Shown: positions 5,159 to 50,701, counted from the stretch's first letter. The stretch is 64,000 nucleotides of DNA from an uncultured Candidatus Saccharibacteria bacterium (GCA_964496425.1 CAZBZO010000004.1:23118-87117); one strand, 5' to 3'. The notes: generated by a model from the sequence alone, not told the origin. Translations and numbers: made by a program.

Positions 5159-6712
5159 TTACATTTTCTGAATTTTCTTACTTACATATGTACCATTATT
5201 TTTAATAATACTGATGATATACATACCAGGCAAAAAATTCTTTGTGTTAAAGTTATTACCTTCTATCCCCACCAACCGAACTCGTCCTATCACGTCGGTT
5301 ATTGTTACCATTTGGAAGTTACCTTCAATCACAATATAGTCGGTAAAGGGATTTGGGTAAACCTTATAATCACTATTAGTAGTAGAAATAACACCGGTTG
5401 GAATTGAACGTTCAAGCATGGCAACCCATATATCGTACTCACCATGGTTGCCTGTAACATCACCGTCAATCGACATACTATGTCCTGCGACGATATAGGA
5501 TCCATAGGAAGTTTGTGTAATTACACATATTCCCCCTTCGACTTCTGTGCCACCGAGGCATTTCTGCCATTCTATATCTCCATCGATAGTGAGTTTCAAT
5601 ATCCAAAAATCATACCAGCCGTGATTACCAGACACATCGCCGTCATTGGACATAGTTGCTCCCGCAACAATATATCCGCCATCAATCGTTTGCTTTACCG
5701 AAAACGATTGGTCGTCCGACACACCACCGAGTGATTTTTGCCATTGGATATTTCCCACTGTATCAAGCTTCACAATCCAATAATCATTACCCCCGTGATT
5801 GCCGGTAACATCAAAGTTAAGGGAACTAGCGTTGCCAGATAAAATATATCCTCCGTCAATCGTTTGTTCAATTGAGTATCCTGCAACATCAATGTCGCTC
5901 CCGCCAAGGCACTTCTGCCACTGTATTACTCCAACCGAATCCAATTTCACCACCCAATAATCAGAGCTGCCATGAATTCCGGAAACATCACCGTTTGATG
6001 AATACGTCCAACCACTGGCGATGTATCCACCATCTTTTGTCTGCCGAATACAAAAAGGGAAATCCACAGATGTGCCTCCCAATGATTTTTGCCATTCGAT
6101 GTTCCCTACGGCATCTAACTTGGCTATCCAATAATCCAAATTGCCGTGGTTGCCAGAAACATCACCATCATTCGAAGCTGAAGCTGAAACTACGATGTAA
6201 CCACCGTCATTCGTTTGGCGAACAGAAAAGGACTCTTCGTCTTCGGTGCCACCAAGGCATTTCTGCCATTCAATAATTCCAAGCGTGTTAATTTTAACGA
6301 CCCAGGTATCGGTCATGCCGTGGTTACTTGAGACATCAAAATCATTAGAGTAACTGAAGCCCGATACAATAAATCCTCCATCAGCAGTCTCTGTAATAGA
6401 GCGTGCTTGATCGGAGCCGCTGCCACCCAAAGACACCTGCCAGATCAGATTTCCACTGGTATCAATTTTTACAATCCAGAAATCATGATCTCCATGGTTA
6501 CCGGACACATCACCGTCATCTGAGTTGCTATAGCCGGCAAAAACGAAGTTGCCATCTGAGGTTGGAGTAAGTGCATACACCACCTCGATGCTACTCCCAC
6601 CAAAGGATTTTTCCCATTTGATTTCAGGCGCTTGCGCTTGTGCAAAATAAAAAGAAAAAATCAATGCCGCACAACTCATGGCTGTCAGCAGGAAATTGGA
6701 AAACTGTTTCAT
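5159..6712 (-). CDS. secreted repeat protein with about 9 tandem ~55-aa propeller-like repeats and a C-terminal T9SS type-A (Por) sorting domain
   Basis: Repeats of consensus W(Q/E)KSLGG(S/T)..D...SI.QT.DGGYI..G...S.DGDVSGNHG..D.W(V/I)VKLD..G.I. The C-terminus YKVYPNPFTDYIVIEG...VTITDVIGRVRL...FLPGMYIISI...NGTYVSKKIQK matches the T9SS CTD pattern. A signal peptide follows the Met at 6712. Confidence 0.75.
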   Translation of the reverse strand: MKQFSNFLLTAMSCAALIFSFYFAQAQAPEIKWEKSFGGSSIEVVYALTPTSDGNFVFAGYSNSDDGDVSGNHGDHDFWIVKIDTSGNLIWQVSLGGSGSDQARSITETADGGFIVSGFSYSNDFDVSSNHGMTDTWVVKINTLGIIEWQKCLGGTEDEESFSVRQTNDGGYIVVSASASNDGDVSGNHGNLDYWIAKLDAVGNIEWQKSLGGTSVDFPFCIRQTKDGGYIASGWTYSSNGDVSGIHGSSDYWVVKLDSVGVIQWQKCLGGSDIDVAGYSIEQTIDGGYILSGNASSLNFDVTGNHGGNDYWIVKLDTVGNIQWQKSLGGVSDDQSFSVKQTIDGGYIVAGATMSNDGDVSGNHGWYDFWILKLTIDGDIEWQKCLGGTEVEGGICVITQTSYGSYIVAGHSMSIDGDVTGNHGEYDIWVAMLERSIPTGVISTTNSDYKVYPNPFTDYIVIEGNFQMVTITDVIGRVRLVGIEGNNFNTKNFLPGMYIISIIKNNGTYVSKKIQKM

Positions 6713-6782
6713 ACGAACGTTTTTTGGTTTAATTTTTGAAGAAATAGAATTTGTCTCCCAAACCATACCACTCAAAACACAA

Positions 6783-6822
6783 AAGCGCAAGGCCGAGGGG
6801 CCGTGCGCTTTTGTTAGTATTT
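6783..6822. terminator. hairpin agcgcaaggcc-gagg-ggccgtgcgct flanked by A/T runs; a bidirectional terminator after rpsP
   Basis: Imperfect 10-bp GC stem with one mismatch. There is a T-run on both strands. Confidence 0.5.
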
Positions 6823-6831
6823 TTTTGATTA

Positions 6832-7137
6832 TTACGCTGCTTTCAATTCTTTGCGTTTCTTGGTTGGACTCTTGCGTGGAAGGACATTTTTCTTGCGGCC
6901 TTCAACGAGTTTTTTTGAAATGAGGAAATTCTGCATAGTATCCGAAGTCTGTGCGCCGACACTCATCCAATATTTGATGCGGTCTTCTTTTAAGGTCACT
7001 TCCCCTTTCTTTGGATCGTACGCACCGAGGATTTCCAAAAAGCGCCCACTTTTGGTGCTGTTTTTTGAGTCCGTCAGAACGACTCGAAATGAGGCTTCGT
7101 TCTTACGGCCAATGCGCTGCAATCTGATCATTAACAT
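6832..7137 (-). CDS. rpsP: 30S ribosomal protein S16
   Basis: MLMIRLQRIGRKNEASFRVVLTDSK...ILGAYDP, classic bS16. Confidence 0.95.
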   Translation of the reverse strand: MLMIRLQRIGRKNEASFRVVLTDSKNSTKSGRFLEILGAYDPKKGEVTLKEDRIKYWMSVGAQTSDTMQNFLISKKLVEGRKKNVLPRKSPTKKRKELKAA

Positions 7138-7143
7138 CCCGCT

Positions 7144-7173
7144 ATCTTACCAGAATGGGCTTGAAAGGTCAAC
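7144..7173 (-). promoter_or_regulatory. sigma70-like promoter TTGACC-17-TAAGAT ending 6 nt before the rpsP ATG, which implies a leaderless rpsP mRNA
   Basis: On the minus strand: ttgacc (7173-7168), a 17-nt spacer, taagat (7149-7144), then agcggg-ATG. Confidence 0.45.
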
Positions 7174-7290
7174 AGGCCCTTCTGGGATATAGCTTTAGGA
7201 GGCTACAGAGCTTTTTGCTATACTAGGAAAAGCATTTGTTTTAAGCAATGCTACGACATTATTATTAATACTATAAAAATTTATATAGAA

Positions 7291-8055
7291 ATGAAAACAC
7301 AAAAAATAGTTACATCGTTGATACTGGTAGCTTTCTTGGCAACTGGCATTTCGGTCGCCCAAGCAGAAACACCAGCCTTGGATAAAATGGTAGCGCCACA
7401 AAAGCCTACTCTTATGCCAAAGCCATATGAGAATCCATCTGTGATGGTTCCCAAAGATCGCCCAATGCCGACAAGTGCAAGTGGTGTTATGCCAGTAAAA
7501 GGTGGTATCAGCCATCCGTTTGGGCAATTACCAGAAGTAGCAGAAGCCAATCGAGCTCGCGTACAGGCTATGATCGAAAGTCACAAAACAGAGATCACTG
7601 AACGACAAGACGCACTGAAAGCCAAACTTATTGAACACAGAGACCAATTGGCAGAGCGTTTTGGAGAAAAAAAGGCTGGAGAAATTGTACAGGTACGTGA
7701 AAATGTAGCTGAGCAATTTGGTGAAGTCTTGCTCAAACTCCGAAGTGCGGAAGAAAAGCTCGACAATCTACTCTCAATGCTTGAAGAACGCGGTATGGAT
7801 ACTGCAAGCAACCGTGCAGTATTTGAAACTGCCTCAAGTGATATCGCTGCAGCTGAAACCGCTATCGCCAATCTGCAAAATATCGCGGCAAGCGATACTG
7901 ACGGTGCAGCCACAGTAAAAGAAGCGGGTGCTCGCGCACGTACTGCTGTAGAAAAAGCAAAACAATCAACACTTGCTGCATTCACTGCAATCCGAACTCT
8001 TATTAGCGCCGAAGCTTCCGTGAAAACAAACACTGAAGCGACAGCAAGTAACTAA
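7291..8055 (+). CDS. secreted Ala-rich coiled-coil protein, unknown function
   Basis: Signal peptide MKTQKIVTSLILVAFLATGISVAQA, followed by helical heptad-like A/E/K-rich sequence. Confidence 0.6.
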   Translation: MKTQKIVTSLILVAFLATGISVAQAETPALDKMVAPQKPTLMPKPYENPSVMVPKDRPMPTSASGVMPVKGGISHPFGQLPEVAEANRARVQAMIESHKTEITERQDALKAKLIEHRDQLAERFGEKKAGEIVQVRENVAEQFGEVLLKLRSAEEKLDNLLSMLEERGMDTASNRAVFETASSDIAAAETAIANLQNIAASDTDGAATVKEAGARARTAVEKAKQSTLAAFTAIRTLISAEASVKTNTEATASN

Positions 8056-29969: not shown

Positions 29970-30197
29970 TTAACGTCGTTTTACGGAATATTTTTCCCTA
30001 CTCCGACTATAGTCTATCTTAAATGACCGTCCATCCTTATCCTTAAAATACGCTTTGTGATTTTTGTAAGCCTCTACAAAAAGCGCTCCTACCTCTCCAC
30101 GGTCAAGTTTGTCTAAATACTCAACACCCTTTTTATCGTCATCACTTTCATATGACGCCTCCCATTCTTTTTTTTCATGTATATATTTACTGCTCAT
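29970..30197 (-). CDS. hypothetical small charged protein 2 nt upstream of pheS
   Basis: 75-aa ORF, K/D/E-rich. Confidence 0.4.
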   Translation of the reverse strand: MSSKYIHEKKEWEASYESDDDKKGVEYLDKLDRGEVGALFVEAYKNHKAYFKDKDGRSFKIDYSRSREKYSVKRR

Positions 30198-30361
30198 AGG
30201 TATATCTTAGCTATTTTACGAGAGAGCACAAGGGCAGAGAGTATGCTATCCTTTTTATATGACCCGCACGACCCTTGTCACCCTCATTAGCCTCATCATC
30301 ATTTTTGGCCTTCTTGGCTTGTATATTGGCTGGCGTGACAACGGTCCAAATGACACATCAC

Positions 30362-31459
30362 CTAGCTTAGAACAATAAGATCCCGGAGTTTGCAATACTC
30401 ACATTTTTTTTCATTGCAACGCTCATTCCAAAACGAAAGGGTGATAATTTCCTCGGCAGTTTTTTGGATAAGTGCTGTGAGCTCACGCACTTCTTCGTCG
30501 GTGATTTCAAATTCTTCTTTGCGATACTTTCCGCTATCGTCGGGCTCAATAAAATCAAGTGTACCGGAATGCATCGACAATTTACCGTCATTGTAATGAC
30601 TCAAAAGTAATTTATAGAATGTCATCTGCCGATAATAATTGCCGTCCGCGCTTCGCGTTTTGCCCAAGATTTCGTTTCGTGTTTTTGGTTTGCCGGTTTT
30701 ATAGTCGACAACGTTTACAAGATTGTCATTCACAAACTCCAGCTTGTCGAGTACACCAGTGAGTTTGATGTCGCCTGCGATCAAAACACCGTTGATGCGA
30801 TATTCCGTGACACAATTAAGATTCCATGTACCAGCGTAGGCGTCGTACCAGCCTCCAAGTGAGCGAATACCTTTTTCACGCAGGAGCACGACTTCCCCAG
30901 GTGGAATGGATTGCCGGTTCAAGTATCCCTCAAAACTCTCAAGTAGAAAATCCTTGCCTGTCTCTTCTTCTTTGATGCGTTTGAAAAAGTCCTGGAGCGC
31001 ATGATGGACCGCAATACCGTAGGCTTGCGGGATCTCCGGTGCTTTGGGAATACGGATGAGATTGATATAAAAATATTTCCAGGGGCATTCGAGGTAGTTG
31101 TTTAAGGCAGTCGGTGAAAATCCTTGCGCACGGAAAAGCTCGGTGACAAAAGCACGATGATCTTCAATGCCGGACACTGGTGTGGCATGTCTAAAAAAAA
31201 TGTCACGATTCTTCAGATAGTCCTTTCCAATCGCTTCCGTATCTACTTTTTCAATAAGCTCGGGTTTTATTTCGCCAATAAACGAACTCGGCAATTGCTC
31301 CCTGCCATCATCATTCTCTCTGGCATAACTAATCGTCACGCCTTTCTTCGCCCGTGTCAGCGCCACATAAAATAAGCGCCGCTCTTCGGCGTTGGCGTCA
31401 TTTGAAGTATCAGCAATCTCTTCAGTCTTCTCTTTAATTTTAGCTTTAGTTTTTGGCAT
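30362..31459 (-). CDS. PD-(D/E)xK nuclease with a 4Fe-4S cluster (Cas4/AddB-like), beginning with UvrD helicase motif VI
   Basis: N-terminus EERRLFYVALTRAKKGVTISY is helicase motif VI. The nuclease core has LECPWKY, DYKTGKP and the C-terminal CNEKKCEYC. Confidence 0.75.
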   Translation of the reverse strand: MPKTKAKIKEKTEEIADTSNDANAEERRLFYVALTRAKKGVTISYARENDDGREQLPSSFIGEIKPELIEKVDTEAIGKDYLKNRDIFFRHATPVSGIEDHRAFVTELFRAQGFSPTALNNYLECPWKYFYINLIRIPKAPEIPQAYGIAVHHALQDFFKRIKEEETGKDFLLESFEGYLNRQSIPPGEVVLLREKGIRSLGGWYDAYAGTWNLNCVTEYRINGVLIAGDIKLTGVLDKLEFVNDNLVNVVDYKTGKPKTRNEILGKTRSADGNYYRQMTFYKLLLSHYNDGKLSMHSGTLDFIEPDDSGKYRKEEFEITDEEVRELTALIQKTAEEIITLSFWNERCNEKKCEYCKLRDLIVLS

Positions 31460-31607
31460 TAGTTCTATCGTACAGGAATGAGCTTAGGATTCCAAGTTAG
31501 TAAAAATGAAAAAGACTAACCTTGCTAGTTTAAAATCTTGCCTTGTATTTTTCTCAGAGTGAGCGTACTATTGGGGTATTAATATATATATAAATTCTAA
31601 TACAAAC

Positions 31608-32351
31608 ATGGAAAACAAATTTAAAAACATAATAGAAAATAACCAATTTAATACAAATTTTAAGAGATTAAGAAATTTTCTGGTTGCTTCGTTAGCTGTT
31701 TTTTCACTTAATAAAGCGGAAGGTCAAGCACTCAAAAAAGATTTGATGATAAGCCCAGAACAACAAATTTCAATTATAAATGAGATACGCACCATTGATA
31801 GTTTGGTGCTAGAGCTCACAGATCGTTTTGGTAATAAACAATCATTGACTGAATTGGTAAACGAAAAGGAAAAAAGCCTCGCGGGTCAATATGGAGAAGA
31901 TTATGTGAATAAATATGTATCTGCGACAGACCCTAGATTTGTTGTTTACAGATACGGAACTAATATAGAAGGTCCAGTTGAATTTAAAGATGAAAATTTT
32001 CCCGCTGATTATCCTATAAAACAATATCGATATTACGGTTCGCATGGTAATGATATTTATATAGGTGATAAAAAATGTGAAATCGTTTGTAGTTATGCGT
32101 ATGAATCATCAACCGATTCTACAAAACAAAACATAGTAAATGTTATAGATTATTCGGGAGATATCCCACTTACTGAAAAGTGTAACGATACTTTAAATTT
32201 TGCAAAGTTCGGCTATACTGAATCTGAATCTACAGATGTATCATTAAATAATAAAATGTCTGTTCATAACTATACATATGAGGATTTGATTGAGAATCTT
32301 AACAATGTAAATGCTTTAATAAAATTAGAAATTTCTAAAAAAAGTAAATAG
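31608..32351 (+). CDS. hypothetical secreted protein encoded in an AT-rich insert
   Basis: 247 aa with an N-terminal hydrophobic segment LVASLAVFSLNKAEGQ. The region 31460-32460 is visibly AT-richer than its flanks. Confidence 0.5.
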   Translation: MENKFKNIIENNQFNTNFKRLRNFLVASLAVFSLNKAEGQALKKDLMISPEQQISIINEIRTIDSLVLELTDRFGNKQSLTELVNEKEKSLAGQYGEDYVNKYVSATDPRFVVYRYGTNIEGPVEFKDENFPADYPIKQYRYYGSHGNDIYIGDKKCEIVCSYAYESSTDSTKQNIVNVIDYSGDIPLTEKCNDTLNFAKFGYTESESTDVSLNNKMSVHNYTYEDLIENLNNVNALIKLEISKKSK

Positions 32352-32461
32352 AAAATATTCTATCTCCAGGTTTAACCTGGGAAGTTATGGATTTGGTCAC
32401 CAAAGTGGATAAGTGGAGCGAAAATTTGACAAGCCTCCTACTAACAAGGTTTACTGCAAGA

Positions 32462-34426
32462 TTAGTCCTTACTAGTGGTAAGTTGATACACTCTATCGAT
32501 CAATTTTAACCGCTCCACATTTCTTTTATCACCAAAATGGCCAGCATAGGCGTGAATGATGTAGACGTATTCAAACTCTAGTCCTTTGGCGCGATGTACC
32601 GTCATCAGTCGTACTTTGTTTTTATCGAGTGTTCCCTTTCGTCTCCTGATGAAAAGATTGTGCTCACGGATGGTGTCGATGTAGGTGAAAAAGTCAGCTA
32701 GTGTGGCACCGGATTTGCGTGCAATAATTTTTCGTGCTTCGTCAAAAAGATTGGAAAGCGCATCCATCCGCTCTTCGAGCGCAGGACCTTTGAGGATGCT
32801 ATCGAGGAGTCCGCTTTCGGTCATAACTCGCTCGAGAAACGGCAAGAGTGGTTCGTTGTGGCTTTCACTGACCCAGTCTGACAATCGGGAAAACATGTTC
32901 TCAAGCGCAGTCTTATTTTCTAGCGGGACCCTAGCTAAACTCGCTTTGTCTAAGAGAAAATCATACAGTGTTATTTTGGTCGCTGTTTCATCATTTCCAC
33001 GAACATCATATGCGCTACGAATCACGCGATAGACATCGAGTGGTGCAATGCCCCAGAGATCAACATGGAGTGCCGTAGCAAGTATTTCATTGTTGCCGTA
33101 TTCATGAATAGCACGCAAGACGGCAATAAATTTTGCTACATCGGGCTCGGAGAAAAGATCTTGATCGGACTCGATAGTATACGGAATATTCATTTTGGCT
33201 AAAATATTGGCCATCGGAAACGCATCGGCATTGTTGCGATACAATACGGCAATCTCGCTAGCTGTAACTCCTGATTTTATTTTTTCTTTAATATCTGTGG
33301 CGACAAAATAGAGCTCTTCATCCGTCTTGGCGAATTCTGCAATTTTGATTTTTGACTCAGAGTGATTGCTCTTTGCTGCAAGCGATTTTTGGCTCGCAAT
33401 CAAACTCTCTGCCGAGTCGAGAATGGATTGTGTCGAGCGGTAGTTTTCCGAAAGTGCAATCAATTTCGCGTCAGAATACATATCCCGGAAATAATAAAAG
33501 TTTTCAAGCGATGCACCTTGAAAGCGGAAGATGGCTTGTTTTTCGTCACCCACGACAAAAAGATTTGGGCTCGAGTGGAAGCGTGCCATAAGCTCGAGGA
33601 TTTTATTTTGCGCATTGTTGGTGTCTTGATGCTCGTCGACCAGCATGTACTGGTATTCTTCTTGGAGTATCTGGAGAAGGCCAGCATTATCGGAAAGCGC
33701 TCGTAGTACTTCCATAATCATATCGGTAAAGTCGTAGAGCTTTCCCTCGGCAAGCACTTTTTCATAGGCGCTATACATCACCCCAAGTTCCTTATTTTTA
33801 GCAATCAATTTTTCAAGTTTGAGATACTCCCCTTTCACCTTACCTATGTGTGCACCTTTGGCATGCACTTTATCTGGAATATTTTCATACGCTCGCTCTT
33901 CCGCCGCCACAAGCTCCGCAAAACGCTCGCAGGATATGCCTTCGCGCTTAAGCTCGCCGATCGATGAGACAATATCTCGCACATATAAATATCGATCACC
34001 ATATGGTCGCAAAAGAACGAAGGGAATATTTTTCTCTTCAATCAAATCCTTCACCACCCCGACTTGATCCACTTCGGTGATCGGCCGCGAGCCGATAATG
34101 CGCGGAAAATATTCTGGGTAGGTGTTGATGATATGCTCAGCAAATCCGTGAAATGTATGGATGGCGACCTGATAGGCCTGTGAACCGATCAGGCTAGCCA
34201 GACGCTTCCGCATGTTGGCAACTGCTGCTTCAGTAAAAGTAAGTGCCAATATCTGCTCCGGTGCGGTATCTGTACATTTCAAAATGTTGGCAATGCGAAG
34301 CGTGAGAATCTGGGTCTTCCCGGTGCCGGGACCCGCGATCACCATGACCGGCCCTTCAATCATATCGACAGCTTCTCGTTGGGCACTATTGAGCTTTTTG
34401 TATTCTTCTTCAAACGTCGGTTCCAT
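32462..34426 (-). CDS. UvrD/PcrA-like SF1 helicase, truncated after motif V
   Basis: Motif I AGPGTGKT, II VDEHQDTN, III VVGDEKQAIFRFQGA, IV YRST, V LMTVHRAKGLEFEY. The start is taken at MEPTFEEEYKKLNSAQREAV. Confidence 0.85.
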   Translation of the reverse strand: MEPTFEEEYKKLNSAQREAVDMIEGPVMVIAGPGTGKTQILTLRIANILKCTDTAPEQILALTFTEAAVANMRKRLASLIGSQAYQVAIHTFHGFAEHIINTYPEYFPRIIGSRPITEVDQVGVVKDLIEEKNIPFVLLRPYGDRYLYVRDIVSSIGELKREGISCERFAELVAAEERAYENIPDKVHAKGAHIGKVKGEYLKLEKLIAKNKELGVMYSAYEKVLAEGKLYDFTDMIMEVLRALSDNAGLLQILQEEYQYMLVDEHQDTNNAQNKILELMARFHSSPNLFVVGDEKQAIFRFQGASLENFYYFRDMYSDAKLIALSENYRSTQSILDSAESLIASQKSLAAKSNHSESKIKIAEFAKTDEELYFVATDIKEKIKSGVTASEIAVLYRNNADAFPMANILAKMNIPYTIESDQDLFSEPDVAKFIAVLRAIHEYGNNEILATALHVDLWGIAPLDVYRVIRSAYDVRGNDETATKITLYDFLLDKASLARVPLENKTALENMFSRLSDWVSESHNEPLLPFLERVMTESGLLDSILKGPALEERMDALSNLFDEARKIIARKSGATLADFFTYIDTIREHNLFIRRRKGTLDKNKVRLMTVHRAKGLEFEYVYIIHAYAGHFGDKRNVERLKLIDRVYQLTTSKD

Positions 34427-34517
34427 AGACTCATCATAGGTGATTTCAAAGCCAAAACAAAATGACCTTCCAGATGAGCGGAAGGCCATTAAATTTATTC
34501 GAACGAGAGATACTTTG

Positions 34518-34955
34518 TCATCCTGAGCGCTTGAGATGATAATGAGGCGCAAAAAGACACACAAATAAAATAAACAAGCTTGCGAACATCGATGAGAATA
34601 TTATCATCGGTAAGATAGTAAGCCATGTGGGACTTATTCCCAGCCAATGAAAAATATTAATTACAGCAACAGTTACAACTGCATAATTACAGATATAAAA
34701 TAGTTGCGCGATCTTAATATTTTTAATCAACAAAAATACCTGCAACAGCGCAACGAAAACACCAATACCGGCGCACAACATAAATCCTATGAGGTCCTGG
34801 TTATTCCAAGATTTGTATACATAGTATGCAAATGGGAAAAATCCAAGTAATGTAAAAAAACTGAGTGCTTTTGCCAATAATATTGGTAGCACAGATCCGA
34901 TGATTTTTAGGCGCATGTGAAACAAATTTTGAGGTGAGGAGAAATTCAAATACAC
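34518..34955 (-). CDS. hypothetical membrane protein (4 TM segments)
   Basis: Hydrophobic ORF. Confidence 0.5.
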   Translation of the reverse strand: MYLNFSSPQNLFHMRLKIIGSVLPILLAKALSFFTLLGFFPFAYYVYKSWNNQDLIGFMLCAGIGVFVALLQVFLLIKNIKIAQLFYICNYAVVTVAVINIFHWLGISPTWLTILPMIIFSSMFASLFILFVCLFAPHYHLKRSG

Positions 34956-35004
34956 AAAATCTTTATGATTTCGAGGTCATTTGAACATATTTAGTGAGTC
35001 AAAG

Positions 35005-36328: not shown

Positions 36329-37660
36329 TTATTTCAACCCCTTCACTATTTCTACAAACTGATCATTGCGGTCGTACACATTTATAAATTGGCCAAAGGA
36401 AGCAAAAGCTGGGCTAAAAAGTATAACGTCTCCCGGCTTAGCTTTTGCCTGAGCGTTTACAATAGCTTCTTTGAGGGTTAGAGCATCTTCAGCTTTCAAT
36501 TTTGATTTCCGGGTCAAAATCTTAAACTTTGTGGTACCTGATCCTGGAAGCAAGATCACTGCTTTACAGAAAATTGAGATCTCTTGCGCTAGTTCCCAGG
36601 CATCAAGCCCTTTATCGGCACCACCCATAATGAGAACAATATTTTTCTTCTCAGGATCACCGACCGCACGGAGCGCTTTGATCGTCGAGTGAGGCGTGGA
36701 AGAGCTATTGTCGTTATAAATTTTTACATCGCCTATTTTCTTTACATATTCGAGCCGACCAGACACGGCCTTAAACGACTCCACTGCTTTTTTGATAGCA
36801 GCCATTGGTATGTGAAGCGTACGTGCAGTTGCTATCGCTTGGGCAACATTGGCATGATTGTGCTCGCCGAGGATTGGAATTTGCCAAAACATTGGCACAT
36901 AGGAACCATGCGCCAAGACTAGAGTCCCAGGATAATTTTCTGGAATACGCTTTGCAATGTCTTCCGAGACTACGAGAATATCGCCCCTTTTCTGATATTT
37001 AAAAATGTTGGCTTTATCGGCAAAATAACTTTTGAGATCATTATCATAATAATTCATATGCTCTGGCGTGAAGTTCGTGAAGAGCGCGATATGAGGAGAA
37101 ATCTTTGCATCACCAAATCCTTGAAGCTGCCAACTCGAAAGCTCAAGGACGACAATGTCGCCGGATTTTATTTTCGGCAACAGATTGAGGGTGGCCACAC
37201 CACGAATGTTGCCAGCAATATGCGCCCGCTTCCCTGCGACTTTCAGTATTTCATATATGAGCGTCGAGGTTGTTGTTTTACCTCTTGTTCCCGTCACCCC
37301 AATGACTGTAATATTTTTCGGGGCGAGTGCAACAAAGAGTTCGTCATCCATACGGATCGGTATGCCTCGCGCGCGAGCATGAGCAATATACATTGAATCA
37401 AGCCGCACGCCTTGAGCTTTGAGTACAAAATCACAATCTTCAAAATCTTTGAAGTCATGGCGGCCAAGCACCAGTCTGACATTTTTGTATTTTTTAAGCG
37501 GAGCCACCGAAGCCGCAAGTTCTTTCTCGGTTTTAAGATCCGTCACCGTCACCTGCGCTCCTGCTTTCGCTAAAAAGACCGTATCTCCTAAGCCCTTTCC
37601 AAGAAGCCCAAGACCCATGACGGTCACTTTTTTACCTTTTAGGAAGGCTTTGTAGGTCAT
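36329..37660 (-). CDS. murD: UDP-N-acetylmuramoylalanine--D-glutamate ligase
   Basis: VTVMGLGLLGKG, GVTGTRGKTTT. Confidence 0.9.
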   Translation of the reverse strand: MTYKAFLKGKKVTVMGLGLLGKGLGDTVFLAKAGAQVTVTDLKTEKELAASVAPLKKYKNVRLVLGRHDFKDFEDCDFVLKAQGVRLDSMYIAHARARGIPIRMDDELFVALAPKNITVIGVTGTRGKTTTSTLIYEILKVAGKRAHIAGNIRGVATLNLLPKIKSGDIVVLELSSWQLQGFGDAKISPHIALFTNFTPEHMNYYDNDLKSYFADKANIFKYQKRGDILVVSEDIAKRIPENYPGTLVLAHGSYVPMFWQIPILGEHNHANVAQAIATARTLHIPMAAIKKAVESFKAVSGRLEYVKKIGDVKIYNDNSSSTPHSTIKALRAVGDPEKKNIVLIMGGADKGLDAWELAQEISIFCKAVILLPGSGTTKFKILTRKSKLKAEDALTLKEAIVNAQAKAKPGDVILFSPAFASFGQFINVYDRNDQFVEIVKGLK

Positions 37661-46712: not shown

Positions 46713-48005
46713 CTATGGGTTTTTGATCACTCCCATAAATATTATTTCTTGAGTTTGAGTATCTCGGATCGAGACAAAAAACGGCCGATTAACTTCCATG
46801 TAAAATGTTTTTTCAGTATTAACTCCAGCCGAAGTGAGACCCACGCCAATACTGGTCACCGCAGCAGCTTCAGTACCTTCTTCATTTACATCAATGTATG
46901 TCTTGTGTTTAACTTCACTTATGACGAGTCCTTCACCAATACCAGAAAAATCAGCGCCGCTAAAAGCGACCCCCATACCAAGTTGTGTCAAAAGTGGAAT
47001 GAGGCTTTTTTCGTACTCCATTTTAAATTTTGGAAGCAAAATCGTTCCCTCAGTCGTTTGATATTTATTTATCCAGCTATTCCAGGTGGTTGCCGTGAGG
47101 TTTTGAACAAATGAATCGAGATTTTTGGGTAAGAATACGTCCATGACAATGCGCTTACTTTTCCCATACGGCATACTAATACTTTGGAAATCCACCGTTT
47201 CCAAATATGAAAAATCACCTCGTTGCTGCATGAGTGGATGCTTCTTTGCAACACCAGAAGAAAGAGTAAAGTCTCGCTCTTGAGTCATAGACGTACTAAA
47301 TTCACTTGTCCATGTGCCTTTAAAATAAATAGCATTGATTAAATACATGACCATTGTGGAAGGAATCGGCGGAGTGACAATCGTCTGTATCTTACCTTTG
47401 GTATTTTTACTTACCCAAGCATTTATCGTGTCAGCAGCCGTAGGAGCTTCAAAATTAAGTGTTGAGATTTCGGCATTGAAATAATTCGCAACGATAGTAA
47501 GAAAATCTTTTTTAAAATCCATACCCTTTCTCGCCCACAGAGAGTTGGCGACCGATAGTTCTACGTCGGGATCAGGATTTTTCAAGATATTGATAAGCCC
47601 CAGACTTTCTTGATTGACCGTCGCGAGGTCGAGATTCTGAAACTGCAAAGTGTTTTGTATGGCAGTCTTAGTCTCTCCTGCCGCACCGTTATAGACCATT
47701 GACAATGCAAGAGCAATACTTGATGGCGAAATGAAAATATTATTTTCATTTGCATCTTCTACAAGGATTTTCAAGCTATTAAATCCGAATGTAGTGTGGG
47801 CAAGTGAAATATTTTTCGGAGCTTGAGATTGGACAGATGGATTCGGGGTCGGAATTGGTACAACGCTATCATCGACATCACCAATTGGTACCACTTCAGG
47901 TATTTTTTCTATAGAACTTTTCCGTAAAACAAGGTAGCCGCCGGCGCCCGCAATAAGAAGAATAACAATAAGGATACCAAGAGGAGCAAAACCTTTTTTA
48001 TTCAT
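46713..48005 (-). CDS. serpin (serine protease inhibitor) with an N-terminal anchor or signal
   Basis: NAIYFKGTW and the C-terminal FYMEVNRPFFVSIRD serpin signatures. A reactive-centre loop region is present. Confidence 0.85.
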   Translation of the reverse strand: MNKKGFAPLGILIVILLIAGAGGYLVLRKSSIEKIPEVVPIGDVDDSVVPIPTPNPSVQSQAPKNISLAHTTFGFNSLKILVEDANENNIFISPSSIALALSMVYNGAAGETKTAIQNTLQFQNLDLATVNQESLGLINILKNPDPDVELSVANSLWARKGMDFKKDFLTIVANYFNAEISTLNFEAPTAADTINAWVSKNTKGKIQTIVTPPIPSTMVMYLINAIYFKGTWTSEFSTSMTQERDFTLSSGVAKKHPLMQQRGDFSYLETVDFQSISMPYGKSKRIVMDVFLPKNLDSFVQNLTATTWNSWINKYQTTEGTILLPKFKMEYEKSLIPLLTQLGMGVAFSGADFSGIGEGLVISEVKHKTYIDVNEEGTEAAAVTSIGVGLTSAGVNTEKTFYMEVNRPFFVSIRDTQTQEIIFMGVIKNP

Positions 48006-48192: not shown

Positions 48193-48990
48193 TTAATTCC
48201 CAAAATATTTTGGGTTGAGGAGATCAGCAATATCGGAAAGCGCAATATCAATGGTCACGATACCACTCGCATACGAAGCAACTTGATATGAATTGAACAC
48301 TATAGTGAGCTCATTTTCTCCAACATAGAAATTTTGATAATTGTCCGCTACCGGCTCGACTCCTTCTTTAAACCAATTAGCGCCAAAACGCCCCTCAAGC
48401 TTTTCTGTCGCAATCTGTGCGAGTGCTGGCAAATATGCTGCGCCTGACTTAAAAATAGTAGAAAGACCAATCGAGGCCCCTGTTCCAACATCATAACTTT
48501 GCGTCAAGGCAAAATTGTTGGGGTGCGCGGCGCCGCTTGAATACTGCGAGATATCAAGCTCAATGCCCAAAATCCCGTGCGCCGGACCAAAGACTTCATA
48601 GACTGTTGCAAAGGTGCTTTTGTCGTCCGCGTAAAGACTCGGATCTTGTTCGGGAAAGCTCGCGAGGTTGTCTTTGAATGCTTCAATCGAGGCTACCACT
48701 TTTTTGGCAATATCAGCATTGATTGCGTCGTTTACAGACTCTGAGAGTCCGGCAACCTTAGGATAGGTCGCATCGATAGTATATGCAGCAGTGTTTTCAG
48801 AAATCTCTCCCTCTTTCGTAGTGACCGATACGGTTTCCTCTGCGGGGGTGATACTCTCTGGTACTCCAAGCTCAACAGCAGACGGAGAAGGGCTCAGGGG
48901 CGATTTATAGATCGCTAAGTACGCCAATCCGCCGACAATAGCAATGATTACCACAATTTTCACAATTTTGCCTTTTTTCTTTCGAGCCAT
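48193..48990 (-). CDS. N-terminally anchored protein, possibly DUF3298/RsiV-like
   Basis: 265 aa with an N-terminal TM segment. The DUF assignment is from memory only and is weak. Confidence 0.5.
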   Translation of the reverse strand: MARKKKGKIVKIVVIIAIVGGLAYLAIYKSPLSPSPSAVELGVPESITPAEETVSVTTKEGEISENTAAYTIDATYPKVAGLSESVNDAINADIAKKVVASIEAFKDNLASFPEQDPSLYADDKSTFATVYEVFGPAHGILGIELDISQYSSGAAHPNNFALTQSYDVGTGASIGLSTIFKSGAAYLPALAQIATEKLEGRFGANWFKEGVEPVADNYQNFYVGENELTIVFNSYQVASYASGIVTIDIALSDIADLLNPKYFGN

Positions 48991-49978: not shown

Positions 49979-50701
49979 CTACTGTCCGAGGCAGGAAAGA
50001 AGCTCAGGTGATGACGTCCAGCCGCACTCCCCGCTTACCTGTCGTTCACAAGTCGCCGTTTTGTAACAGGCATAAGTTTCGTTATATTCGCAGGTCGAGG
50101 CCATATCTTTTTGGTCTGAGCAGATCTGACTGCTGCAGCCGCCGACATAACATCCAGAAACAGGAACTGGCGATGGTGCAATAGGCGCAGGCGCGAGACT
50201 TTCAACCAAGAGTCCGTTTACAACCTTGAAATATTTTTTCATGGGTACATTTGGTATGGAAGTCATTGGCTCACTTGGCATACGATCCAGGTAGGTTATA
50301 ACGATTTGATCAGAGGTACTGTTGATAGAAACTGGAACAATGCGATCTCCCACAAAAAGAGTATTCTTCCCGACAAAACCCGCATCAGAGCCTTCTGCGA
50401 AAGCAATATAATAAAACGTTCCACTACCACTACTTGCAGATGTAAGCACAAATGTCACGTCAGGAATACCCTCCCCAGTGAAATCTGCCACTTTTTCGTA
50501 CCCCACATACTTGGTCTGCTCTGCTTCTGATGTAGATACTCCACCCGTAAGGGTTACTGACTGGCCTTCTATGGTGTACGTTGTATTTTTATACCCCACG
50601 AGAGTATCTGGGGAAATAACACGTTGATCGGACCGGTACGCTATAAACGCTGCAAAAATAAGAACAACTGCAACAACAAGTATGACCATGAATGTTTTCA
50701 T
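49979..50701 (-). CDS. exported protein with a C-terminal 10-Cys module
   Basis: N-terminal TM segment or signal. The C-terminus is GCYVGGCSSQICSDQ...CEYNETYACYKTATCERQVSGECGW...LSC. Confidence 0.55.
   Translation of the reverse strand: MKTFMVILVVAVVLIFAAFIAYRSDQRVISPDTLVGYKNTTYTIEGQSVTLTGGVSTSEAEQTKYVGYEKVADFTGEGIPDVTFVLTSASSGSGTFYYIAFAEGSDAGFVGKNTLFVGDRIVPVSINSTSDQIVITYLDRMPSEPMTSIPNVPMKKYFKVVNGLLVESLAPAPIAPSPVPVSGCYVGGCSSQICSDQKDMASTCEYNETYACYKTATCERQVSGECGWTSSPELLSCLGQ

Follow-up and report, generated by a model that had tools for sequence, protein, structure and literature searches.

A helicase/Fe-S nuclease encoded by two adjacent genes around a variable gene slot in Patescibacteria: a probable case of stable gene fission

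Enzymes of the AddA, RecB and AdnB type (AddAB, RecBCD, AdnAB) consist of a UvrD-like motor of superfamily 1A (SF1A) followed by a RecB-family PD-(D/E)XK nuclease, and the locus described here shows the same order of parts. It lies in a 64,000-nucleotide stretch of DNA from an uncultured Candidatus Saccharibacteria bacterium (GCA_964496425.1 CAZBZO010000004.1:23118-87117; this whole stretch is referred to as the window), and comprises two open reading frames (ORFs) on the minus strand, the N half at 32462-34426 and the C half at 30362-31459, which are parted by a gap of 1002 bp. Unlike in AddA, RecB and AdnB, the chain is cut in RecA-like domain 2A and helicase motif VI travels with the nuclease; moreover, the enzyme falls far under the equivalog cut-offs of these families, and no partner resembling AddB, AdnA, RecC or RecD was found among the large ORFs of the window (DnaE, an SMC-like protein, RNase R, ThrRS and others). 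The four-cysteine arrangement of the C half resembles that of the iron-sulphur (Fe-S) nuclease of AddB and Cas4. As argued below, the two genes probably represent a stable, naturally split helicase/Fe-S nuclease whose halves reassemble, the gap between them being a small gene slot with fast turnover.

Several known systems come close to this arrangement. The nrdA gene of phage Aeh1 is reportedly split by mobE, a free-standing homing endonuclease gene (genes in pieces). That insertion occupies a tolerated site of an essential enzyme gene, and the product reassembles non-covalently and retains activity, a likeness that at the window would be expected by analogy. In contrast to nrdA/mobE, the window locus has no endonuclease, its insert is exchangeable, and its split is passed on by inheritance and recurs across lineages of bacteria. 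Fractured genes, in which a split intein and a free-standing endonuclease lie between the halves, were described by Dassa et al. (2009, PMC2677866). They share with the window a broken DNA-metabolism enzyme, an unrelated gene between adjacent halves, a break beside conserved motifs and gene-control elements beside the downstream half. They differ in that the window locus lacks a split intein and a homing endonuclease, is located on a cellular Patescibacteria chromosome and not in a phage, and carries variable orphan, membrane or toxin-antitoxin genes as cargo. Split genes are also described from Nanoarchaeota, which are reduced-genome symbionts (PMC3655853); the likeness consists in an ultra-small episymbiont with a reduced genome that encodes a single-chain information-processing enzyme as two genes, and the difference in that the window halves are adjacent, are cut inside a RecA-like domain and not at a domain boundary, and enclose a cargo slot. 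Finally, in replacement-type flexible islands one position between conserved flanks is occupied by unrelated genes from strain to strain, with toxin-antitoxin and methyltransferase genes among the cargo, as found here; at the window, however, the flanking 'core genes' are the halves of one enzyme, and the island lies inside what is elsewhere a single ORF. The locus is a variant of known phenomena (gene fission, genes in pieces, flexible islands) with a split that is recurrent in the family, and a literature search for split UvrD-nuclease genes in Patescibacteria returned no relevant prior description.

An initial annotation made from the sequence had read the N half as a UvrD/PcrA helicase, which is borne out by its matches to the Pfam families UvrD-helicase and UvrD_C (Table 1), although the ORF runs 30 residues beyond the motif V string and not about 15 as stated there. 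With regard to the C half, the proposed opening on motif VI and the four-cysteine PD-(D/E)xK nuclease behind it were both recovered, LECPWKY, VVDYKTGKP and CNEKKCEYC all being located. The SF1A UvrD/PcrA/Rep motif set is complete over the two polypeptides, with motifs I-V on one and motif VI on the other. The UvrD_C profile is continuous across the ORFs, positions 1-320 of 350 falling on the N half and 322-349 on the C half, and because it resumes where the N half leaves off, the junction is seamless at the level of the domain profile. Residues 593-648 of E. coli UvrD, which comprise motif VI and the last elements of domain 2A, align with C-half residues 24-76, and alignment to a modelled fused orthologue places the last core strand of RecA-like domain 2A on the C half as well. 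The remainder of the C half carries the signature of a Cas4/AddB-type Fe-S nuclease (LECPW, CNEKKCEYC, VVDYK and YYRQMTFY), which is conserved across 65 orthologues and for which metal binding is predicted. The PDDEXK_1 profile scored 85.7 bits against a cut-off of 22, and Pfam Cas_Cas4 remained under its cut-off (19.4 vs 22.7).

Among the Patescibacteria the window is Paceibacteria/Nomurabacteria-like, and comparison with related loci, which belong to Candidatus Nomurabacteria and Paceibacteria, showed that the two ORFs correspond to one gene elsewhere. A scan of one genome per species gave 71 related loci, 70 of them with both parts, and in 66 of these 70 (~94%) the junction is open and a single frame encodes a protein of ~1000 amino acids (aa). 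The concatenated halves align to these uninterrupted orthologues with just a few additional linker residues, and are halves of one AddA/RecB/AdnB-like helicase-nuclease, in agreement with the initial proposal of an AddA-like enzyme; the UvrD-like motor and the RecB-family nuclease are covalently joined in the fused orthologues and encoded by separate genes in the window. The other four loci (L001, L006, L014 and L065) are split at the same position as the window, with gaps of 0.6-2.2 kb. Similarly, 104 of the 120 best N-half homologues are fused proteins of ~1000 aa, and the other 16 (625-688 aa) contain the N part only and all end 0-8 residues past a conserved (I/L)xxVY element. Context look-ups revealed further split loci (L072, L073/74, L077, L080, L083, L091/92 and L093/94), of which L080 and L072 are 95% (aa) and 70% identical to the window, respectively. 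At least 12 distinct split loci have their break in the linker between motifs V and VI, each with different cargo. The clade of L091 and L093 lacks the VY element, and the N half stops there at the corresponding linker position. The C halves begin 3-50 residues ahead of D(D/A)ERRLFYVALTRA, and the counterpart linker of the fused proteins is ~10-60 residues long and variable in both length and sequence. In all split loci the halves are adjacent and co-oriented, despite the turnover of cargo and differing synteny around them.

The arrangement does not represent an assembly artefact or a chimera, since it is identical in three other public assemblies (L081, L082 and L090), the last of which matches window positions 30596-33930 with 100% identity. 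To judge the age of the split, we take the comparison with L080. The ratio of non-synonymous to synonymous substitution rates (dN/dS, omega) between the window and L080 was 0.055 for the N half (650 codons, synonymous divergence dS 0.59); for the C half, of which 102 codons were available, it was 0.034 (dS 0.75). Between L001 and L065 it was 0.13-0.15. The window halves also retain all 132 columns that are invariant in 65 fused orthologues, whereas in a leave-one-out comparison the fused sequences lose 0.7 such columns on average. The low omega values between the window and L080 show strong purifying selection on both halves, and together with the intact invariant columns they indicate that both halves are functional genes in the split state and rule out a recent disabling insertion. 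The initial annotation had favoured a recent insertion that split the enzyme. The split is however older than the divergence of the window and L080, and relatives carry the same two genes with unrelated genes between them, a finding that the annotation itself had named as speaking against insertion. Its alternative, a naturally two-part enzyme, is supported instead, with the cargo alone being recent. As judged from these sequence comparisons, the split is old and the cargo young, the cargo gene of the window being much younger than the split.

The gap (31460-32461) is indeed AT-richer than its flanks (GC 0.31 vs 0.45), looks foreign and contains the predicted ORF of 247 aa on the opposite strand. 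At the composition of the gap, an ORF of this length has a probability of ~2e-10 per start, and chance does not explain it. In the N-terminal part of the protein a basic stretch is followed by its only hydrophobic segment (aa ~24-35), which may be a signal peptide or membrane anchor and fits the N-terminal export signal proposed before. It has no Pfam or NCBIfam match, and a search among 5.8 billion proteins returned no homologue but itself. The variable DNA does not coincide with the gap: the N half's final 5-6 codons with the stop (32462-32479) fall within the variable DNA and not within the conserved part, and the 37 nt upstream of the C-half ATG, being conserved in L080, fall outside it. 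The initial annotation had also called for a search for repeats near 31460 and 32460, in which no target-site duplication or inverted repeat beyond chance was found. The best inverted repeat at the gap boundaries has 12 nt and 92% complementarity and is one of 26 comparable chance pairs; direct repeats at the boundaries and a transposase were absent, and the gap does not classify as an insertion sequence (IS) or transposon. A hairpin, CCAGGT-TTA-ACCTGG, is located at 32366-32380, 15 nt past the stop of the 247-aa ORF and between convergent genes; it may be a bidirectional terminator, although it has no T-run and was not called by the scan.

The cargo is the part of the locus that changes between strains and species (Table 1). 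Between the window and L080 the flanks are 84-88% identical at the nucleotide level, whereas 984 bp in the former are replaced by an unrelated 446 bp in the latter (blastn). In an alignment of ~10 kb between L001 and L065, the gap is the only intergenic stretch that has been replaced, and one other unaligned stretch lies within the C-half coding region. No endonuclease, recombinase or transposase was found in the cargo of the split loci, the check for endonuclease domains covering the cargo of the window and of nine other loci. Nor is there DNA common to the gaps past a short block in front of the C half, save a weak 48-nt match between L073/74 and L083.

Some gaps contain footprints of recombination. 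Between the two cargo paralogues of L006, at L006:6836-6922, a GAGAG microhomology marks the point where a piece of the C-half head (NDERRLLYAALIRESES) meets a copied stretch of the N-half tail (ERERLPLIESVYKI and stop). Such a junction of motif VI and N-half tail at a microhomology points to tandem duplication of a unit consisting of tail, cargo and head. The two cargo genes share their promoter and first ~45 codons (88% nucleotide identity over 251 nt) and then continue into unrelated C-terminal parts. Upstream of the cargo in L073 (4257-4368), and also in L074, there is a ghost of 112 bp that corresponds to the N-half 3' end; it shares 77% identity with the resident copy and closes with VYKLI and a stop. 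In the gap of L091 (3209-3544) there is a more decayed ghost of N-half residues 533-636 with ~30% aa identity. Homology-facilitated illegitimate recombination is known from naturally transformable bacteria. These footprints would fit either duplication or the capture of donor DNA with a homology anchor in one half and an illegitimate join at the other end. The cargo gene of L073 also has a paralogue with 81% identity ~7 kb downstream (L073 11973-12878).

To place the break in the structure, the nearest fused orthologue, P0124 (1014 aa), was modelled with AlphaFold2 from a 65-sequence alignment (mean predicted local distance difference test score, pLDDT, 87.9; predicted template modelling score, pTM, 0.83). 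The point equivalent to the split lies after L644, with the motif VI helix (659-669) and a strand (672-681) on the C side; by comparison with UvrD/PcrA structures, we take this strand to be a core strand of RecA-like domain 2A. Between the strand that follows motif V (613-618) and the motif VI helix the chain is mostly coil, and the V-VI linker (621-660) is the least confident part of the motor (block pLDDT 62-78, and below 50 at 652-654). According to this model, the fission is inside a domain and yet in a flexible surface loop. Foldseek comparison of the fused-orthologue model retrieved PcrA/UvrD/Rep over the motor and AddA (4cej_A, template modelling (TM) score 0.53), AdnB (TM 0.56) and RecB over the full length. 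The nearest NCBIfam families of the two parts are PcrA/UvrD/Rep and AddA/RecB/Cas4, with every equivalog cut-off far above the score obtained. For the N half the scores were 294 bits against 911 for PcrA, 235 against 1144 for UvrD and 235 against 951 for Rep, too low for orthology with any of them at equivalog level; equivalence to AddA or RecB is likewise not indicated (addA_Gpos 147 vs 708 bits; recB 160 vs 696).

Each half is preceded by a candidate promoter. A TATGAT box lies 6 nt upstream of the N-half ATG at 34426, in a geometry of the leaderless type and just downstream of the terminator hairpin of the preceding gene, and a TACGAT box lies 7 nt ahead of the C-half ATG, inside the conserved 37-nt block that is kept in L080 although the cassette differs. 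An extended -10-like motif 6-11 nt ahead of the C-half start was present in all eight split loci compared and in L083. This geometry is common in the window, where a TAnnnT box begins 10-15 nt ahead of the ATG in 20 of the 61 genes, with a sharp peak at -12 to -14, and a Shine-Dalgarno (SD)-like motif precedes only three of the 61. About one third of the genes have a -10 box, often extended (TGnTAnnAT), that ends 6-8 nt before the ATG (e.g. 36329-37660, 46713-48005, 48193-48990 and 49979-50701). These observations suggest that transcripts in this organism may be mostly leaderless, very short-leadered or initiated without an SD motif; a literature search for leaderless initiation in Patescibacteria found nothing relevant. 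A generic sigma-70 scan of the gap gave nothing above the shuffled expectation, and a metagenome scan with the conserved C-half promoter block returned solely a third copy of the same strain.

Neighbour-joining (NJ) trees of the concatenated protein (61 taxa) and of the N half (112 taxa) both showed the split forms nested within the fused ones at no fewer than four separate points. The window group (bootstrap 100) has the fused P0124 as its sister (82), L073/P0187 is sister to the fused P0175 (88), and L083/P0234 adjoins the fused P0170. A further clade (bootstrap 100), weakly resolved internally, comprises 11 split forms along with 6 fused ones, and L077 is a more distant additional case. Fitch parsimony required eight changes with a fused root. 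Branch lengths show no acceleration of rate in the split lineages. The leader of the L083 C half, MKDLNDSDNDERR, can be recognised as a derivative of LKSDFGNDERR, the linker of its fused sister, and the fission in L083 is therefore independent. The leader MPKAxKK, on the other hand, is common to L077 and to the split members of both the window clade and the large clade, and occurs in no fused linker; L006 and L077 also share the string TGTTAAGAT-N6-GTGCCnAAGA before and across the C-half start. These shared features hint at a single, older split allele, which may have been passed on by inheritance, spread by lateral recombination or re-fused repeatedly.

The account that we regard as probable is that of a stably split enzyme with a fast-turnover gene slot. 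Its break falls within RecA-like domain 2A, in a surface linker between motifs V and VI that is short, variable and poorly ordered. Motifs I-V, on the N half, and motif VI, the last 2A strand and the nuclease, on the C half, would be expressed from a separate -10 box each, and the two proteins would reassemble non-covalently into one motor-nuclease, with the nuclease subunit donating motif VI in trans. In UvrD and PcrA, motif VI of SF1A contacts the gamma-phosphate of ATP and the DNA. With this motif on the nuclease subunit, ATPase activity and translocation would need both subunits. The intergenic space made by the fission would act as a small flexible island in which cargo is gained, duplicated and replaced quickly, the 247-aa orphan gene being the present occupant in this strain. 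As the footprints suggest, turnover would most likely use the conserved halves as homology anchors, either in ordinary recombination between strains or in homology-facilitated illegitimate recombination.

Several points weigh against this account. A break within a RecA-like fold is usually destabilising. The assembly of the two polypeptides and the activity of the enzyme are what we infer from the genes, and the promoters from which each half would be transcribed are assigned by sequence geometry only. The MPKAxKK leader is more easily explained by descent from one ancestor or by a shared inserted module than by purely random fissions arising independently, and owing to the weak NJ support inside the largest split clade, the number of fissions as opposed to re-fusions or lateral spread is uncertain. 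A more far-reaching form of the account, in which the V-VI linker is a recurrent, heritable cassette slot that arose from several independent fissions, with the halves as permanent homology anchors through which naturally competent Patescibacteria would capture and swap foreign or duplicated genes (orphan surface proteins, toxin-antitoxin modules, Fic, methyltransferases) by homology-facilitated illegitimate recombination, and with an obligate heterodimer whose ATPase motif VI on the nuclease subunit would complete in trans, is put forward only tentatively, and we consider it rather doubtful.

Among the other explanations, that of a recent insertion which disrupted the gene and left a young pseudogene pair without enzyme function draws on the AT-rich gap with its orphan gene, on the fused orthologues of close relatives and on the recent arrival of the cargo, which is absent from L080. 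It is nevertheless extremely improbable, because L080 and L072 share the split with different cargo, omega has stayed at 0.03-0.06 over both halves since the window and L080 diverged, no invariant residue has been lost, the ORFs are intact with a dedicated promoter block before the C half, and neither a target-site duplication nor convincing terminal repeats were found. If, on the other hand, the halves had diverged to act separately, the N half would serve as a DNA-binding ATPase without motif VI or as a scaffold lacking activity, and the C half would work as a Cas4-like nuclease on its own. The separate promoters would suit such a division, as would the fact that stand-alone PD-(D/E)XK/Cas4 nucleases are common, but motif VI and the next 2A strand, which have no role outside a motor, are still invariant on the C half, the halves have stayed together in the same orientation in every split locus, and their branches are not accelerated. 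We therefore consider separate functions unlikely.

Rejoining of the halves into one covalent protein by a group I or II intron, by trans-splicing or by a split intein has a precedent in the fractured genes with an intervening free-standing gene of phage-like metagenomic loci (PMC2677866), and the break does adjoin highly conserved motifs, as is typical of intein and homing sites. However, Rfam found no intron family in window positions 30000-35000 at E<=10 (three chance-level matches were to unrelated families), there is no Hint/intein Pfam match, the gap has no homing endonuclease, and the cargo is on the opposite strand. The N halves, moreover, end 0-8 aa past the last conserved element (or at the corresponding linker position in L091 and L093), which leaves no room for an N-intein of ~100 aa, and the C-half leaders, 3-50 aa, Lys-rich and variable, lack an intein C-terminal block; this explanation is scarcely credible. 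A selfish site-specific module, consisting of stop codon, cargo, outward promoter and MPKAxKK start and homing to the V-VI linker, could instead have made the splits and spread between lineages, the recurrence then reflecting homing and not tolerance. The use of one site in at least four phylogenetically separate groups speaks for it, as do the MPKAxKK leader and the string common to L006 and L077. The cargo genes are, on the contrary, unrelated and without a conserved recombinase, endonuclease or transposase, the cassettes have no conserved ends past the promoter block, the leader of L083 came from a fused relative's own linker, so that this fission was not module-borne, and the -10 geometry is genome-wide and hence expected by convergence. 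Such a module appears distinctly improbable, and the stably split, reassembling enzyme remains our preferred account.

Table 1. Features of the split locus in the window and cargo of the split loci
Locus	Feature	Position	Strand	Basis or content
Window	N half, 654 aa, SF1A UvrD/PcrA-type motor, motifs I-V	32462..34426	-	Pfam UvrD-helicase 2e-60, UvrD_C 1-320/350
Window	Walker A of N half	34313-34336	-	motif search
Window	DEHQD of N half	33623-33640	-	motif search
Window	Motif III of N half	33512-33553	-	motif search
Window	Motif V LMTVHRAKGLEFEYVYII, N-half aa 607-624	32555-32608	-	motif search
Window	Conserved RVYQL element; N half stops 5 aa beyond	32480-32494	-	
Window	-10 box TATGAT, 6 nt upstream of N-half ATG	34433..34438	-	leaderless-type geometry
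Window	Variable cargo cassette, 984 bp	31497..32480	.	window-L080 homology ends 32481, resumes 31496
Window	Cargo gene, 247-aa orphan protein	31608..32351	+	opposite strand to halves
Window	Conserved block upstream of C half	31460..31496	-	kept in L080 though cassette differs
Window	-10 box TACGAT, 7 nt ahead of C-half ATG	31467-31472	-	inside conserved 37-nt block
Window	C half, 365 aa	30362..31459	-	UvrD_C 322-349 at aa 20-47; PDDEXK_1 at aa 114-360 (6e-24)
Window	Lys-rich leader MPKTKAKIKEK... of C half	31391-31459	-	
Window	Helicase motif VI AEERRLFYVALTRAKKGV, C-half aa 24-41	31337-31390	-	
Window	LECPWKY of C half	31073-31093	-	
Window	VVDYK (VVDYKTGKP) of C half	30686-30712	-	
Window	QxxxY motif (YYRQMTFY) of C half	30605-30637	-	
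Window	CNEKKCEYC of C half	30392-30418	-	
Window	Cargo			247-aa orphan protein, opposite strand
L080	Cargo			86-aa membrane protein
L072	Cargo			methyltransferase + 196-aa ORF
L001 / L065	Cargo			unrelated 156-aa and 182-aa ORFs
L006	Cargo			two paralogous membrane-anchored proteins
L014	Cargo			membrane protein + lipoprotein-like ORF
L073 / L074	Cargo			287-aa (L073) or 369-aa (L074) protein + PemK toxin
L077	Cargo			133-aa ORF
L083	Cargo			178-aa Ala-rich membrane protein
L091	Cargo			4.3 kb: Fic, HicB, PaaX_M, three orphans
L093	Cargo			Fic + HicAB

The genes neighbouring the locus are core genes encoding an M24 peptidase, MurD, MurC, PheS, PheT, GyrB, DnaE and an SMC-like protein. A Lys/Asp-rich ORF of 75 aa (29970-30197, minus strand) without a family match separates the C half from pheS, and a 75-aa gene is likewise positioned before pheS in the distant relative L077. 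Elsewhere in the window, a 543-aa protein (5159-6790, minus strand) matches Por_Secre_tail, the C-terminal sorting domain of type IX secretion, at 8.5e-8 and above the Pfam cut-off, which is unexpected for a Patescibacteria genome.

Mid-length C-containing proteins on long contigs (P0027, P0096, P0111, P0112) were candidates for other split positions; they proved to be genes with colinear frameshifts, or a scaffold gap, and not clean splits with cargo, and no second clean split site was found among the truncated C-containing proteins checked. In L076, L088 and L066 the helicase part is spread over several colinear frames; L076 and L088 are on contigs of more than 700 kb, whose names suggest long-read assemblies. 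These broken frames are probably frameshift errors or true pseudogenes, which inflate the counts of 'short' C-terminal proteins in databases. L093 has a reverse-transcriptase (RVT_1) gene (L093:512-1597) immediately upstream of the distal N-half part, which starts at about aa 349 of the query, and this placement suggests that the same gene was interrupted a second time; Rfam gave no group II intron RNA, and no match at all, in L093 1-3000 next to it. In L077, a gene for an IS200/IS605-type Y1 transposase (7098-7775) is located immediately downstream of the C half, outside the gap.

For annotation, the finding means that the two ORFs are not to be called pseudogenes or unrelated 'UvrD' and 'PD-(D/E)XK' proteins. 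With regard to helicase enzymology, the locus would be a natural experiment in which an SF1A motor withstands an interruption of the chain between motifs V and VI and receives motif VI from a separate nuclease subunit, which suggests that motor activity may be gated by subunit assembly and offers a design for split-helicase tools. The cassette-slot account, if true, would add a new kind of flexible micro-island together with a natural split SF1 helicase. For the evolution of Patescibacteria, the locus indicates that an intradomain fission can be stable and recurrent, and that the gap it opens can turn into a place where orphan, surface-protein and toxin-antitoxin genes are quickly exchanged.

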